A program made the translations under genes and the position numbers. Under the pieces are notes generated by a model that made no database searches, had not been told where the DNA came from, and worked only from the letters and a program-made list of their open reading frames with translations. DNA of 64,000 bases from a virus. Location: the IMG/VR virus record IMGVR_UViG_3300045988_085064. One strand, written 5' to 3'. This document shows positions 30,135-37,037 of the stretch, piece after piece (position 1 is the first letter of the stretch; every line of letters begins with the position of its first letter).

Positions 30135-33100
30135 TCAACGTCTGCTAAAAGCTCTCTGGTATGCTAATGCTTTTACATTTTCTACAAATTTCCTTGCATC
30201 TGCCGCAGTCTGAATATTCGGGAATGACATAGTAGTATTATTAAATTCCATACTCATACCCGCTGGATTTCTATTTGATATAGCAATACCTTTATTATCT
30301 ATAACAGACCTACCCAGATTCCAAAGATTCTTTGTGATATTGCTTGGAATAATTCCATCACCAGAGTTAAGTACCCTAAGTTCTGGGCCATTTTCACCAA
30401 CCATATGAAGCCCACTTGTGCTAGATAATGTTCCATTTGCATATCCAGTAATAGAACTTAGTTTCTTATTGATTTCGTCCTGTTGCTTGATTACCTTGGC
30501 AAGTTCAGCGTCGCGTTTTGCCTCAATCACAGATTTCTTTGCTTCAAGGCTCTTGCTACGATTGTATTCATTTAGAGCTTCTTGCGCCGTGGCAATTGCA
30601 TCATAATCTTGAGCGTATTGATATCGTCCATCCTTAAAAGTATACACCCGCTTAGAACGAGCCTCTGCTAGGTTCTTTAGCAACCCCTCATATTTAATTT
30701 GGTCTTCTAACTTATTGTTTGTATCTTCAAGCGCCTTAATCTCTGCATTATACTTATCATTGATTGCGCTCTGAGTCTCTTTGAGGGCTTTAAGCTGCGC
30801 ATTCAAATTATCCTTTATCTGGGATTTTTCCCATTTGTATATCTCCTCTTGATATTTCCAATATTCCTTTTGATACTCTTGCCGCCCTTGGAAATATTTT
30901 TTATTCATCTCTTCAAGCTCTTTATAATATTGAGCTTCAGAAATTTCATCCATTGCCAAAGCGTGTTTCTTGGCGTCTAACCAAGCATCAAATTCATCTT
31001 TCCAAATATCTTTAGAACTCTTACTAGAACCTGAAGATGAAGATGAACTTGAACCAGATGAGCCAGAACTACTAGCAGAAGAATAAGACGAAGTAGGATA
31101 TGAGCCACTTGTTTCCCTGCTTTTAGACGTTTTAGGGATTTTGCCCTTAGCCGTAATAGGCGTTAGTCTCGAAACAAGGTCGAACGAAACTCTTGGGATG
31201 TATCCAAGTCTATGTGCTTGAATCGCGCCATGTAATTTTTTCCCATTTAGAATAGCTCTAGTCTCTTCTGCCGTATACACATAATCTCCATCGTGCATCT
31301 GAGTAATTGTCGGCATACCATTACCAGCGATATATGCCTCATTACCACTTTGGATAAGCTCAGGGCCTTCCTCATTTACAAGAGATGGCCCTTCTTTTGT
31401 TCTACCGCCATCTGCATTGACTTGGTATCTTGTGTCGCCAAGATTCTGAATGTTATTCTTTGCGTTTTGCGCTTGATTGGACACTCTAAGTAGTTGATCG
31501 CCAAGAGACCTAACCTGACTCGTAATACCCGACAGAGACGTACTATTCAAATCTTCCAACTCAGATGTCATCTCTGCCGTTGCAGATTCCGTCTCACCAG
31601 CTTTTTTGATAATATCGTCTATGCTCTCAGGTACATTTGTCAATCTTACATTATCCGCATCTTCCAAAGAACGCTTCATGTCTAAGATGGCATCCTTAGA
31701 ATAACCAACCTCAGATAACCCCTCTACAACCTTAGTAAAATCGATTTCATTAACGCCATTTTTGACTGTAACAATAGAACTATCAAGATTGCTAAATGCA
31801 GATATGAGCGCATCAATGTTCCAATCAACATCCGCTCCATATACCTTGCCAGCCTCAATAAGTGCCCAAAGCTGAGATGTTGTCAGCCCCATAGAATTGG
31901 CAAGTTGGTCAAAATCAGTAATATTATAGGATATAGAGTCTCCCGTTGTATCTAATGTCGCGCCAACAAGCTCTCCAGCATCTGCCAATTCTTGCATAAC
32001 TGTAACAAATCCAAGCCCGCCCGATTCAGCGTCAGAATACAAGGTTGACAATCTATCCATAATACCGGCCATATACTCAGCCTTATCAGAAGCGTTGTCA
32101 AATCTAGTTAAAATGTCATCCCCGACAAGTTGAGATAAGGCATTTCTGAATGTTAGAGAGCCAATTTGCCCAGCTTCAAATTCGTCATTAAGAGTTGAGA
32201 ACACAGATGCAAGCCCCTTAAAAGCATCATCATAGTCGCCCGTTTGGGACATGGCATTGTCAAAATTCGTTTTAGCATCTGTCGCGCCTTGAATCATGTC
32301 GGCCCATCTTAGAACCGTTTCAGCAGACGATTTGAATTTAGAATCCATATCGCTGGTCGCATCGCCTATACTACCAGCTAGATCGCTAAACCTCTTATAT
32401 AGCTCATAGACTTCATCCTTGGTAATAGATAATCTTTGAGCAATAGTATCAGCAACATCAGAAAACGACCGCCCCTCAGAATTAGCAACCGTTTGTACCA
32501 CTACCAATTGCTGATAACTATTATATTCATCCATCAAAGCATCAGATACTTGATTCCCAGCATCTATCTGTTGCTTGATGATTTCATAATATTGTTTGCC
32601 GCTTTGAATCGCATTGTCAACATCTTCGGCCCAGCGCTTAGTTTGTGCTCTGGGACTATCAAATATATTCTTAGACATCCCAGAATAGGTATATAAAGAT
32701 TTGTAATATTCAGCATTGGACTTTGCGGCCTCGTTCTGAGATACAGTATTTTCCTTAATGGCAATTCCATATTTCTTAGCGGCTTTGGCAAGAGCCTCGG
32801 TATCTGCCTCATAATCGCCTGTTACCTCAATAAGGTCAATCAATTTGGCCTTTTGAGCAATTATAGTTTGGCTATTTGTAGCGGACGCTATCGTAACAGT
32901 GATCTCGGCATCAGCAATATCCCATAGAGCATCAGACATATCTTTGTATACCTTAGTATTATCAATACCAGATATATTAATATTTGAATTCTTGGTGCCA
33001 ACAGATACACCTTCAACCCTATCCTTGCTAAGGATTGACGCGCCTTCAGCAATTTGAGCTTTCTGTTGGATATCTAGCAACTTTTCATAATATGCAATGA

Positions 33101-33978
33101 CGTGCTCTAGGTATTCCGCTTCTTTATCAATATCAGCGGTCCTGTCCTCCCATGGCGTTGCATTGATTTCCTGAAGACTGGACTTAGCATCATCGTATTT
33201 GCCGCTAATTTCTTGGACTTTATCTCCAAGTTCATTATATTCATCAATATGCTCTTGGATGGATTTATTTGCTTCGGCAATAAGCCCAGATATGCCTCTA
33301 AACACCTCGGCTAATCCAGCCACAGCCACAGCAACAGCAGCTATAATTACCAATGTTTTCGGAGCTAATAATGTTGCAAGTAAGCCACCGCCACCAGCAG
33401 TTGCCGCTAATGTGGCACTCAATTTAGCCATAGCCGCAATTATAGTGCCAACAATGCCAACTAATGCAGTTAATGCCGCAGCAAATCCACCTACACGGGC
33501 GATAACAGCCACAACATCATTATTGGCAAAACTAAGCATTGTATGCCCAGCATCAAGGAAACCGCTTACTAAATCCTTTGATAAGACACGATTGGAAAAA
33601 TCCTCAAATTCAGCCTTGAGCAGTTGTTCTTTAGCTCCAAGACTTTCCATATACCGCTCATTTTCTTTCATGGCCGAGCCATTGGATTCTAGTGCTGTAT
33701 TAGTTGCATTGATAGCTGTTTGGTAATTCTTTAAAAGAGCGGCTAGATTTTGAGTTTGAGTGGTTCCTGCTTGCTGTTGCAGATAATACATCTGCTCATT
33801 CTTAGTTAATGTCGGCCAGATTTTTGCTACATCAGTCAATACATCATATAGACTGCGAATCTGACCTTCGTCATCTTTTATCGCAATTTCGTGTTCTTGA
33901 TACCATTTTGTAAGCGCCTTACCAGTGTCAGATGATTCATCTACGACTTGGTTTAAGCGGGCTTGTACAGTGATAAGT
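30135..33978 (-). CDS. Tape measure protein, third segment (putative exon 3)
   Basis: 1280 codons. Frame is open from 33977. Begins (R)LITVQARLNQVVD..., continuing the TMP core. Long coiled coil, Ser-rich linker, C-terminal region. Confidence 0.7.
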
Positions 33979-35554
33979 CAATGTATTAACTCGGATTCGT
34001 CACATCCGATAAGGAGAATTTATTTATAAAATCAGTTAACAAGACATCGTGCTCGTCTTTTTCTAACACCCAAAATGGAACCCGCAATAACGGAATGTTA
34101 TTATCTTCACAGTATTTAGTTTTTATCTCGTCATTCTCTTTCACTGTCTCATATTTCTTTTCTGCTTGTTCTCTATATTTTTTACCACCAAATGAAACTG
34201 GCCTATAATGTCCTATTCCATCAACCTCAATGCAAGCATTAAAATCTGTTAAATAAAAATCAAATGGTAATGCTCTTTTATTGACACATCTATCAAATGT
34301 TTTTTCTTTTTCATATAGTATATTATTATTATTTAGCCACAGCTCTACTTTTGCAGAAATAGCAGATTGTTTCATTCTACATTCATTGCATTGATACTTT
34401 CCATCTGCGAAATGATATGCATCAACCTTAAAGTCGTTGCCACAAGAGCATTGAACAATAAATGGCGATTTTACACCATTGTATTCTTGATTATAAATGG
34501 TACAATCCCAATCTTTTAGAAAAGCATATATCCTTAAATTATCAAGAGCGTATGGGTTTGATTTGCCGAATCTCTCAAATGAACACCCGTTATATAGCGA
34601 GGTAACACTAATAAGCCCACGATAACCGTTTTTGTCCTGAACAACAACATTATCTTTTGACCTTATCGTTGAATCATTCAAAATACACAATCCAGATTTC
34701 CTAGCAATTTCATGATATTTGTTAGAATCAATATGGTTTGTATTGACTTCTCCCCTACTTCTTTTTATCTTGTAACATCTATTGCAGCATTTATCATCTT
34801 TTGAATAATATTTATGCCATGTTGATGTAAATTCACCGCCACATATTCCGCACTTAAACATGATTGGCATATCAATGTTTGATATATCTTCTTTTTTTGT
34901 TAATAAAATAGTACCATACTCATTTGTCTTTTTGATATATAACATCATATTGTCATAAAAATATGGGTTTTTTGTGCTAAATGTATGCTCTACATCCACA
35001 GAGTAACGTTTTTTATATGTTAAAGTGTGTTTACAAGTGTGGTAGCTTCTTTTGTATTTATATCCATCAGAATCAACACAGTCATATTTATAATCTACGC
35101 CACGCGCAATATCTTCCAATAACGTTAATCCAACTTGTTCAAATAATTTCCTTGTTTCTTCTATTGTTATTTTTTTCGACATAAATTCTCCTTCTTGCAT
35201 TTTCATGCAATGTTTAGACTATTTCTTCATCTCATAGTATTGAGAGTCTATCATTTCGATTTAAGGGAATCTCACCCACAAGCTTAGACGTACTTGCCCT
35301 ACTCCTATTGTGATATAGTCACCAATGGGATAGTCGTTTGACTCACTCCTATTCGGAGCTTTGCGCCCAAACATCCATTATAAAATACTTAGGTGTTTCC
35401 ACCATATATCATCTCTATCGTTTTTAATACTTTCGCACATTCACGCTTGTCAATCTTTCAAGACTACGTTGTAGTGATAGAGCTTTAGGAATTACTGGGT
35501 TTAGATAGATATCATGAGGCATATTACTATACCTCTAGGCACTTATTGTTTGCC
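33979..35554 (-). mobile_element. Intervening sequence 2 in the tape-measure gene (group-I-intron-like, carries endonuclease ORF); ends +/-15 nt
   Basis: It separates two TMP fragments that lie in different frames. Its 5' roughly 330 nt is paralogous to intervening sequence 1, with compensatory helix changes. The terminal base is G in the splice model. Confidence 0.55.
33986..35182 (-). CDS. Intron-encoded endonuclease candidate: zinc-ribbon repeats + PD-(D/E)xK/Vsr-like C-terminal domain
   Basis: ATG 35182 after AAGGAG. Contains CGICGG..CCNRC and CSCGN..CNEC modules. C-terminal LPFDFYLTDFNACIEVDGIGHY...NIPLLRVPFW. Confidence 0.5.
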   Translation of the reverse strand: MSKKITIEETRKLFEQVGLTLLEDIARGVDYKYDCVDSDGYKYKRSYHTCKHTLTYKKRYSVDVEHTFSTKNPYFYDNMMLYIKKTNEYGTILLTKKEDISNIDMPIMFKCGICGGEFTSTWHKYYSKDDKCCNRCYKIKRSRGEVNTNHIDSNKYHEIARKSGLCILNDSTIRSKDNVVVQDKNGYRGLISVTSLYNGCSFERFGKSNPYALDNLRIYAFLKDWDCTIYNQEYNGVKSPFIVQCSCGNDFKVDAYHFADGKYQCNECRMKQSAISAKVELWLNNNNILYEKEKTFDRCVNKRALPFDFYLTDFNACIEVDGIGHYRPVSFGGKKYREQAEKKYETVKENDEIKTKYCEDNNIPLLRVPFWVLEKDEHDVLLTDFINKFSLSDVTNPS

Positions 35555-35915
35555 CTACTTCCCTTGGCGGCGTTCCTCGTGATTTCAGTCATAGCCGTAA
35601 GCATACCAAGGGATTGTTCAAATGTATTATTGCCTGTTGCCATAGCAGCAGACATATTACCTAGGTTCTGTGCTAATTGCCCAGATGAAACAGCATAATT
35701 ATTTGATACAGCATTAACCGCATCGATAATATGCTCAGCATTATCCGCTTCAATATTGAACGCCTTCATCTGCGCAACAATAAATGATGCGCTATCTGCC
35801 GCAGAAACCGATTCATCCGCTACGTTCTGAAAAGTAGTCGCAACTTTAGCTAGAGTTGCCGAGTCAGAATCATTAAAGCTGTTTTTACGGAATTGAGTTG
35901 CGGCCTCAACCATCT
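35555..35915 (-). CDS. Tape measure protein, second segment (putative exon 2)
   Basis: TMP-core-like ...SSGQLAQNLGNMSAAMATGNNTFEQSLGMLTAMTEITRNAAKGS. Frame is closed 9 nt upstream of its first ATG and 27 nt after the proposed junction. Confidence 0.6.
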
Positions 35916-35940
35916 CTGACGGTTATAAATTATCCAATGC

Positions 35941-36027
35941 TTACTTGCCCTTCCAGCAAGCAACTGTATATGCAATCATAAATGTAAACCAGCCAACAAT
36001 GAAAATTGTAGCGTAGAAATCTCCCAT
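35941..36027 (-). CDS. Mini membrane peptide (28 aa)
   Basis: MGDFYATIFIVGWFTFMIAYTVACWKGK, a single TM segment. Its ATG overlaps the upstream stop (TAATG). Confidence 0.4.
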   Translation of the reverse strand: MGDFYATIFIVGWFTFMIAYTVACWKGK

Positions 36028-36257
36028 TACAGCTTCCCCCATCTTTCATCGTCACACCCATATTCAGCCGTTCTTTTCTGCTCTTCTTCAGCGGTTTCAT
36101 AATGAATGTTGTACTGTTCATCATCAGGCTCTTTTTTAATAAGCCCATGGTCGTGGTTGTTACGAATACCATACACAATCATCTTGATTAGTGTAACCAG
36201 TCCAACAATAAAGAACGCTGGAACAACAAAAATAAAAACCATAATTGAGAGAATCAT
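36027..36257 (-). CDS. Small membrane protein (76 aa)
   Basis: N-terminal TM ILSIMVFIFVVPAFFIVGLVTLIKMIV, then an acidic tail. Has its own promoter 34 nt upstream of the ATG. Confidence 0.45.
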   Translation of the reverse strand: MILSIMVFIFVVPAFFIVGLVTLIKMIVYGIRNNHDHGLIKKEPDDEQYNIHYETAEEEQKRTAEYGCDDERWGKL

Positions 36258-36290
36258 AATGTAACATCCTTTCTTTTATTTGGTGTCTAC

Positions 36291-36319
36291 ACTATAACAC
36301 ATATTAGATAATTTGTCAA
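36291..36319 (-). promoter_or_regulatory. Sigma70-type promoter inside intervening sequence 1
   Basis: Minus strand: TTGACA (36319-36314), a 17-nt spacer, TATAGT (36296-36291). Confidence 0.5.
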
Positions 36320-36676
36320 GGGGTTTTTAATCCCTTCCTGAATATTTCTTCGCCCTATTTTATTGGAGGGTCGCCCTGTATATTCGATTGACACATCCCT
36401 CATCAGGACTTCGCGCCCAATTTGCCCTTTTGTCCCAAATATTATACATTATTTGTGACAGATTCTTTAGGTTTTTCAACCATGGAATCATCCTTATCGT
36501 CTTTCTGCTTTCGCACTAATTGTTCATTACTAATGAACATATCACACTCAGGCATATCTCATCCTCATGTTGTAGTGATAAGGCTCTTGAGGCTTTCAAG
36601 GGTTTAGGGGCTGTTCTCTATGCTGCTTTACCATCGCAACATACCGGCTCAGACCGATTTGGTTTACCGGTTCGTC

Positions 36677-37037
36677 CTACTTCCTTGCCCATATTGGCAA
36701 GTTTCTGCGTATATGAATCAAGCGCCGCGCCAGTTAAATCCGACACCTTTTTAAATTCTGTTTGTGCCGTGTCAAGCGCTTTAACTTGAGTATACATTTT
36801 GCTTGTAACATCCACAACGGCATCGAATACTTGTCGTAATTGTTGATACGTTATAGATAGCTCTTTTGTGGCGTTATCAAGCGATTGCGTTGCACCAGTT
36901 GTTTCTTTTATTCCTTTACCATTTACGGTTGTTTCAACGTCAACGCTATATTTCCTAGAGCTTAGGTTTCTTTGTATTTTTTCAAGATCGAGTACAGCAT
37001 CGAGAACTATACTATAATTACTATTTGTTCCAGCCAT
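36677..37037 (-). CDS. Tape measure protein, first segment (putative exon 1)
   Basis: N-terminal coiled-coil ...TSKMYTQVKALDTAQTEFKKVSDLTGAALDSYTQKLANMGKEV. The ORF tail beyond this point (GRTGKPNRSEPVCCDGKAA) is not TMP-like. Confidence 0.6.

Follow-up and report, generated by a model that had tools for sequence, protein, structure and literature searches.

A tape-measure gene probably split into three exons

The window considered here is the whole 64,000-nucleotide (nt) stretch of viral DNA in IMG/VR record IMGVR_UViG_3300045988_085064. On its minus strand, a tape-measure gene (37037-30135) is very probably one gene split by two paralogous group I introns. An initial annotation, made from the sequence alone, had proposed such introns with the ribozyme core first and an open reading frame (ORF) last, and this proposal is supported by colinearity with uninterrupted homologues, by P1 and P10 guide pairings at both joins, by covariation, and by a covariance model built from relatives, R1.

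Three ORF pieces lie in succession, 37037-36618, 35913-35527, and 33977-30135, and protein alignment places them in the same order as the single tape-measure proteins (TMPs) of relatives. Within Pfam PhageMin_Tail (201 positions), 20-135 correspond to piece 2 (E 2.9e-11), and piece 1 has a weak tape-measure match. The conceptually joined protein, used as query, retrieved 153 homologues, some unbroken across join 1 (e.g. P0004, P0008, P0044), some across join 2 (P0001, P0002, P0005), and some across both (P0004, P0008). Aligned with uninterrupted homologues, the conceptually spliced protein is colinear over both joins, which upholds the initial view that the three pieces read in order as one TMP; the accompanying statement that they occupy three different frames is incorrect, as pieces 1 and 3 share a genomic frame (start coordinates modulo 3 of 2, 0, and 2). 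Many further homologues begin right at query residue 122 or end right at residue 241, the pattern expected of gene calls cut by insertion at those two sites. The gene is therefore truly split, and its cut sites recur among relatives. The exons and introns of the locus are as follows.

36666-37037, minus strand: TMP exon 1, 124 codons, ending GKEVGRTG, with its last base the U of GGU
35920-36665, minus strand: intron 1, group I, 746 nt, starting AAACCAAAU and ending AUAACCG; junction placed from homologues
35552-35919, minus strand: TMP exon 2, starting UCAGAG AUG and ending AAGGGAAGUAGGGC; holds the PhageMin_Tail core
33979-35551, minus strand: intron 2, group I (subgroup IA-like), 1573 nt, starting AAACAAUAAGUGCCU and ending UACAUUG
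30135-33978, minus strand: TMP exon 3, starting A CUU AUC, where the A completes a split Ala codon (third position) and 1281 codons follow

Homologues share the consensus G.EV[G/A]RT[G/A]SEMVEAAT at join 1 and A.K.SR[A/G]L[I/V][T/S]VQ.RLNQ at join 2; in the window, piece 1 closes with GKEVGRTG, and SEMVEAAT is encoded from directly upstream of piece 2 into it. Conceptual splicing yields a TMP ORF of 1527 amino acids (aa) with no internal stops and a predicted mass of about 168 kDa, which reads GKEVGRTG^SEMVEAAT (a caret marks each junction) and AAKGSR(A)LITVQARL, with the Ala codon split GC^A. The predicted ligated exons are GAACCGGU^UCAGAGAUGG at join 1, also given as GACGAACCGGU^UCAGAGAUGGUU, and AGUAGGGC^ACUUAUCACU at join 2, also given as GGAAGUAGGGC^ACUUAUCACUGU; the predicted join-spanning peptides are VGRTGSEMVEAATQFR and GSRALITVQAR.

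The same pieces could be read as a split gene that is never spliced, in which decayed intron remnants or endonuclease insertions separate three TMP polypeptides that assemble with one another. Split genes of this kind exist, the fragmented nrdA and topoisomerase genes of T4-like phages being examples, and an ATG is present in both piece 1 and piece 2, which ORF calling lists separately, as public gene calls also do. This explanation is nevertheless highly improbable. The first in-frame ATG, GTG, or TTG of exon 3 does not occur before 33839, so that piece 3 has no in-frame start across its first 46 codons, which are nonetheless conserved with homologues, and in uninterrupted homologues the ATG of piece 2 corresponds to a conserved Met inside the protein, that of SEMVEAAT. 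Further evidence against unspliced remnants comes from the RNA, as described below.

Splice junctions and guide pairing

At join 2, an in-frame TGA (33980-33978) limits the start of exon 3 to 33978 or later, and the conserved peptide GSRALITVQ is reproduced only when exon 2 ends AGGGC (35552) and exon 3 starts A CUU AUC (33978). An intron-2-less allele spanning join 2 was found on an 84%-identical contig (L151), where it reads AGGGC^GCTTATCAC, in longer context AGTAGGGC^GCTTATCAC, with the site also written GGTAGTAGGGCGCTTATCACGG. A junction that would give intron 2 the canonical U, with the site after GGAAGU, was rejected since the in-frame TGA 33980-33978 precludes coding the invariant R[A/G]. 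Both introns begin AAAC. Both also end in G (AACCG^UCAGAG for intron 1 and CAUUG^ACUUAU for intron 2), as the initial annotation had anticipated, and this terminal G is kept in all relatives examined.

Each intron carries a contiguous guide whose two parts pair with the two exon ends at these homologue-defined junctions. The intron 1 guide 5′-UCUGA^GCCGGU-3′ pairs with ligated exons ACCGGU^UCAGA over 6 base pairs (bp) in P1, where U.G occupies the splice site, and over 5 bp in P10. The intron 2 guide 5′-AUAAGU^GCCU-3′ pairs with GGGC^ACUUAU over 4 bp in P1, here with C-G in that position, and over 6 bp in P10. A relative, L042, has a compensatory change in P1 (C-G to U-A), and a compensatory P10 change (A-U to U-A) separates the window type from the type found in L005.

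The splice model first put forward restored the reading frame arithmetically, but its junctions are wrong, though they fall inside its own margin of ±15 nt. Its sites are off by 12 and 5 nt for intron 1 and by 3 and 0 nt for intron 2; compared with every uninterrupted homologue, they lose GRTGS from join 1 and a single residue from join 2, and they clash with the guide pairings. The exon-terminal base, taken there to be G with the 5′ site after GTAG, is U before intron 1 and C before intron 2. The shared AAGG(G)AAGTAGG that anchored that model is present (36685-36672 and 35566-35552, minus strand) but precedes the actual 5′ splice sites by 12 and 3 nt. As a recognition element it was rejected, its sequence differing in about 20 relatives with the same intron 1, and the shared motif is most likely a coincidence.

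Other ways of interrupting the gene found no support and have a negligible probability. A group II intron would be at odds with spacers that have no reverse transcriptase and no GUGYG...AY ends; an intein is excluded by in-frame stops in both spacers and by two spacer lengths not divisible by three. Known cases of translational bypassing span far less than the 746 and 1573 nt found here, and an assembly chimera is contradicted by the same architecture in many independent assemblies.

Ribozyme fold and covariation

Downstream of the guides, P2, P3, P4, P5 with a large extension, P6, P7, P8, and P9 can be placed in both introns.

36318-36671, minus strand: intron 1 ribozyme core, P1-P9, with P7.1 and P7.2 absent
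36671-36666 with 36648-36643, minus strand: intron 1 P1, U.G at the splice site
36653-36649, minus strand: intron 1 P10 guide UCUGA
36611-36608 with 36376-36373, minus strand: intron 1 P3
36385-36380 with 36345-36340, minus strand: intron 1 P7
36336-36332 with 36322-36318, minus strand: intron 1 P9
36583-36577 with 36498-36492, minus strand: intron 1 P5a, covarying
36481-36478 with 36473-36470, minus strand: intron 1 P5c, covarying
Further intron 1 helices, minus strand: P2, P4, P5, P5a-d, P6, and P8
35195-35555, minus strand: intron 2 ribozyme core, P1-P9 including P7.1 and P7.2
35555-35552 with 35540-35537, minus strand: intron 2 P1, C-G at the splice site
35546-35541, minus strand: intron 2 P10 guide AUAAGU
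35509-35504 with 35252-35247, minus strand: intron 2 P3
35335-35330 with 35222-35217, minus strand: intron 2 P7
35210-35205 with 35200-35195, minus strand: intron 2 P9, GAAA loop
35482-35476 with 35419-35413, minus strand: intron 2 P5a, covarying
35403-35400 with 35395-35392, minus strand: intron 2 P5c, covarying
Further intron 2 helices, minus strand: P2, P4, P5, P5a-c, P6, P7.1, P7.2, and P8

The two helices named at the outset as showing compensatory changes between the spacers are real and covarying, and correspond to P5a and P5c; one coordinate had been given one position off (35482, not 35483). Core strands UCAAACGACUAU and GAAGAAAUAGUCU agree with the Rfam consensus in its classical R and S elements. 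Between P7 and P3′, intron 1 and its family have just 'AC', where intron 2 has P7.1 and P7.2, both covarying. The first by-eye assignments of intron 2 P3/P4 (CCAGU/AUUGG) and P5 (CCUAAA/UUUGGG) were superseded after comparison with relatives.

Relatives were gathered by blastn, by motif scans of viral contigs, the first of which gave many chance matches that were filtered by blastn, and from contigs encoding TMP homologues. They were aligned as an intron 2 family of nine sequences, 72-80% identical (alignment A2), and an intron 1 family of 22 sequences (alignment A3). In A2, 93.3% of cells are paired and 43 of 80 pairs have changed on both sides, a result as high being reached by none of 500 shuffles, and just 36-47% of cells are paired when partners are slid. 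P3 and P7 are both 100% paired, with compensatory change in five of the six P3 pairs and in two P7 pairs. In A3, 91.3% of cells are paired and 19 of 73 pairs have changed on both sides, compared with at most 4 when partners are slid; the changes fall in P1, P2, P3, P6, P7, P8, and P9. Every slid control falls below both alignments, as does each of the 500 shuffles on four of the five measures. This covariation supports a P1-P9 fold with a P3/P7 pseudoknot as the predicted structure of both introns.

The model R1 was built from eight relatives, with the window sequences excluded, on an RNAalifold consensus structure, and RNAalifold independently recovered P6, P7, P7.1, P7.2, P8, and P9. Searched against both strands of all 64 kilobases, R1 finds exactly two sites, one in intron 2 (35373-35192, 171.6 bits, E 1e-42) and one in intron 1 (36423-36316, 47.4 bits, E 9e-11). 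The relatedness of the two spacers, asserted from the start, is confirmed by family hidden Markov models (HMMs) that detect each other's spacer: the intron 1 family HMM finds spacer 2 at 35504-35329 (E 7e-17), the intron 2 family HMM finds spacer 1 at 36609-36318 (E 6e-24), and neither matches elsewhere in the window.

These results bear on the idea of an unspliced split gene. Diverged relatives keep the terminal G, the pairing of the guide with the exon on either side, and compensating substitutions across the ribozyme, and such selection on RNA structure would not last in a dead remnant.

Some features of intron 2 noted by eye suggest tertiary contacts of the tetraloop-receptor type. In P5c (35406-35388, minus strand), UAUGG...CCUAAG resembles the 11-nt GAAA-tetraloop receptor, and two helices are capped by tetraloops, P2 by GUAA (35527-35524, minus strand) and P9 by GAAA (35204-35201, minus strand).

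Points against the introns as active ribozymes

Several points weigh against the reading of this locus as one gene restored by two active introns. Splicing itself is predicted from the anatomy of the locus, and endonuclease activity and promoter use are likewise predicted. The covariation counts come from related sequences, and the structures were partly drawn on the window sequences, which somewhat favours the structure. Intron 1 has a weak P4 (three Watson-Crick pairs and two U-U) and is missing P7.1 and P7.2. With Rfam group I models, neither a search of the whole window at the gathering threshold nor an E-value search of 33800-36800 gave a match; RF00028 scores intron 2 at 37.0 bits (E 4.8e-8), below the threshold of 50 and only when a 396-nt stretch is searched, and gives no match to intron 1 searched as a short stretch. 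Finally, C is the last exon base before intron 2, so that C(35552)-G(35540) takes the place of U.G, and work on the Tetrahymena ribozyme indicates that such a Watson-Crick splice-site pair should slow the first step.

The bias from structures drawn on window sequences is offset by the RNAalifold-derived R1. Rfam group I models, named at the outset as a check, returned nothing at the gathering score, but did give the sub-threshold match to intron 2, and relatives pass: RF00028 scores an intron of Enterocloster phage CB457P2 (L003) at 95.9 bits and three ORF-less introns in the TMP gene of L006 at 52.3, 49.7, and 33.0 bits. The 33.0-bit intron lies at precisely the site of intron 2, with which it shares 73% identity; the window introns are homologous to group I introns that Rfam recognises. 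Since intron 2 was hit as a short stretch after being missed by default, the silence of Rfam is uninformative; the sub-threshold or missing scores likely result from the large P5 extension and, in intron 1, from the loss of P7.1 and P7.2.

The same oddities could mean that one or both introns were recently inactivated, leaving the TMP gene a pseudogene in a defective phage or prophage. A 5′ exon not ending in U before intron 2, an intron 1 family P4 that is only 62% paired, the missing P7.1 and P7.2, and the absence of an Rfam match for intron 1 would all fit such decay. The odd features recur, however, in a large number of independent relatives whose exons are intact: in seven of nine intron 2 family members, the 5′ exon ends in G or C opposite a guide base that matches it, and 20 intron 1 family members have an identical weak P4. 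All exons of the window gene are also open and conserved, and inactivation is accordingly given very little weight beside two functional group I introns.

The last base of the 5′ exon

According to the passages of Tourasse and Kolsto (2008) cited here (PMC2504315), a U precedes virtually every group I intron and forms the splice-site pair U.G. Intron 1 follows this canonical U. Across relatives, the splice-site base and its guide partner covary and are not fixed as U.G: in the intron 2 family (A2, n=9, columns 28/40), the pair is G-C in four, C-G in three, U.G in one, and unpaired in one, and in the intron 1 family (A3, n=22, columns 12/30), it is U.G in 20 and G-C in two. Junctions were checked by reading frame and terminal G in L006, L044, L048, L005, and L148. 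At the residue-241 site, U is unavailable because the intron lies between codon positions 2 and 3 of a Gly/Ala codon. In the literature, nothing specific was found on natural introns that do not follow U.

There is about an even chance that this lineage routinely splices after C or G, by way of a Watson-Crick pair to a co-varying guide base, and, separately, that in intron 1 the usual kind of homing endonuclease has been replaced by a promoter-driven family of small membrane proteins. If true, splicing after C or G would be a natural exception, maintained by evolution, to a rule deemed critical for 5′ splice-site choice, and it raises the question of how a group I ribozyme chooses and cleaves a 5′ splice site after C or G.

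Proposed splicing pathway

In the pathway proposed, each transcribed intron would fold into a P1-P9 ribozyme encoded in its first ~350 nt. The guide would pair with the last 4-6 bases of the upstream exon to form P1, and free guanosine would attack the 5′ splice site. The same guide would then pair with the first 5-6 bases of the downstream exon to form P10, the terminal intron G would enter the G-binding site in P7, and the exons would be ligated. The resulting spliced mRNA would encode the 1527-aa TMP.

Cargo of the two introns

The two introns differ in the genes they carry downstream of the ribozyme core.

33986-35182, minus strand: predicted homing endonuclease gene in intron 2, 398 aa, with ribosome-binding site GAAGGAG at 35194-35188, downstream of the P9 hairpin
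36291-36319, minus strand: promoter-like site in intron 1, TTGACA-17-(TG)TATAGT, sigma-70-like, just 3′ of P9; consensus match only
36027-36257, minus strand: ORF76 in intron 1, 76 aa, with an N-terminal transmembrane helix and an acidic tail ending WGKL
35941-36027, minus strand: putative 28-aa hydrophobic ORF in intron 1 (MGDFYATIFIVGWFTFMIAYTVACWKGK), its start overlapping the ORF76 stop (TAATG)

The intron 2 endonuclease has two zinc-ribbon modules in its N-terminal half and a predicted C-terminal Vsr-like nuclease domain. The program-listed start, ATG 35206, falls within the P9 hairpin, and the real start is likely ATG 35182, after GAAGGAG; the stop is just 6 nt from the terminal G of the intron. 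An identical 398-aa protein, P0121, is in the database. Among PHROG families, it matches 559 (E 1e-39), 9084 'homing endonuclease' (E 7.5e-29), and 7140 'intron encoded nuclease', and the families matched are named HNH, homing, or intron-encoded nuclease. Searches with the sequence found no detectable similarity to Protein Data Bank (PDB) chains and nothing in Pfam and NCBIfam. An AlphaFold2 model (pLDDT 90) has as its top Foldseek matches Vsr (1cw0, 1vsr) and the catalytic domain of I-Bth0305I (3r3p), with probability 1.0 and E only 7e-3 to 2e-2. The residues E319, D321, H325, D351, and K354 are invariant. Homologues of the endonuclease occur in many related introns, including L044 at the same TMP site, and in an annotated intron of Staphylococcus phage MarsHill. 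Presumably, the enzyme cuts intron-less TMP alleles and so drives homing.

The cargo of intron 1 includes no nuclease and consists of a promoter-like site and one or two small membrane-protein ORFs. The promoter-like site matches the consensus at 11 of 12 positions, has the extended -10 TG, and is matched better by no other site in the region; of the 22 aligned relatives, nearly all have TTGACA unaltered, the remainder being clipped at the alignment edge. Each relative of intron 1 has one to three tandem small ORFs ending W-G-x-[L/I]. No match above threshold was found for ORF76 in Pfam, PHROGs, or NCBIfam, and a profile of the small-ORF family gathers 1243 unnamed protein clusters. Two sampled profile members again lie between TMP exons 1 and 2, and all five members whose surroundings were read, intron 1 loci aside, sit in this TMP intron. 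In the literature, nothing specific was found on non-nuclease intron cargo in phages. If the assignment is true, these small membrane-protein genes would be 'moron'-like cargo of possible selective benefit to the phage or the intron, and the role of the small membrane proteins that intron 1 carries becomes a question in its own right.

Relatives and spread

Neighbours of the homologous TMP genes encode YomX, YomW, YomU, and YomN domains, which points to SPbeta-like phages. In these relatives, introns interrupt the TMP gene at no fewer than four positions, corresponding to query residues 120/121, 241/242, ~312, and ~356. More than 20 viral contigs have intron 1 at this site of the gene with 87-94% identity, against only 38-59% for the protein of the flanking exon 1; the intron is spread among diverged phages. 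The pattern is as expected of an element that may move horizontally.

Intron-bearing TMP loci include L006 7870-9583, L005 6298-9154, L009 8041-8618, L148, L131, and L136. In L006, three ORF-less introns follow one another, and public gene calls give the exons as separate small proteins. Upstream of the TMP gene of the window, a RuvC-like gene (37542-37021, minus strand; Pfam RuvC E 7.5e-6) lies immediately 5′ of the TMP start codon and overlaps it; the arrangement recurs in L005, L006, L009, and L150, and the tail module is an odd place for a resolvase.

Megablast against phage records gave no match, and short matches came only in 'distant' mode. Unannotated gaps in Staphylococcus phage vB_SepM_BE25 (L001 2501-2607) and phage PT1-4 (L002 2501-2662) are 72-75% identical to the intron 2 core, and the gap in vB_SepM_BE25 precedes an 'intron encoded nuclease' gene. 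These gaps are probably unannotated group I introns in structural genes.

Comparison with known systems

The nearest comparisons are with introns of other phages. The intron of Enterocloster phage CB457P2 has 71% identity with intron 2 over 163 nt, and L006 7862-8232 is the same intron as intron 2 at the same TMP site. With the RF00028 consensus, as matched by the CB457P2 and L006 introns, the window introns share the R and S elements of the core and a P9 hairpin capped by GAAA. The intron 2 endonuclease resembles I-Bth0305I, which is likewise encoded by a phage group I intron and has a Vsr-like fold that the modelled C-terminal domain matches (TM-score 0.69, normalised to 3r3p). Unlike I-Bth0305I and Vsr, it has the motif E-x-D-x3-H...D-x2-K, not EDxHD, and two N-terminal zinc ribbons.

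The nrdD (sunY) intron of phage T4, with I-TevII, has a 5′ ribozyme core, an ORF after P9, and a 3′ splice site far from the core. The window introns resemble it in layout, with a 5′ core and the ORF downstream of P9. The T4 intron differs in its host gene, in its endonuclease family, and in having the canonical U at the 5′ splice site.

The closest parallel by description lies in prophages of the Bacillus cereus group, for which Tourasse and Kolsto (2008), in the passages cited here, describe group I introns of types IA1 and IA2 at three TMP sites, TMP-IVS1, IVS2, and IVS3 (PMC2504315). Two of the introns in the TMP gene are paralogous and differ chiefly in P1 and guide, which have adapted to different sites (PMC2504315). 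As far as those passages go, the features in common are an IA type (here IA-like, in intron 2), a siphophage TMP gene with several insertion sites, an endonuclease gene in some copies only, and spread among unrelated phages (PMC2504315). The host lineage differs, being here SPbeta-like phages from metagenomes, and the two sets are likened by description. An intron that follows C and a cargo of promoter and membrane-protein genes are features of the window, none of which appears in the cited parts of the B. cereus-group description (PMC2504315).

The TMP gene is a recurrent intron target. Because gene callers split the TMP of this group into two to five small ORFs and default Rfam searches miss the introns, many metagenomic phages have a wrong TMP annotation and a wrong inferred tail length. 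The window is a case of a known phenomenon, the TMP introns of the B. cereus group, in another phage lineage.

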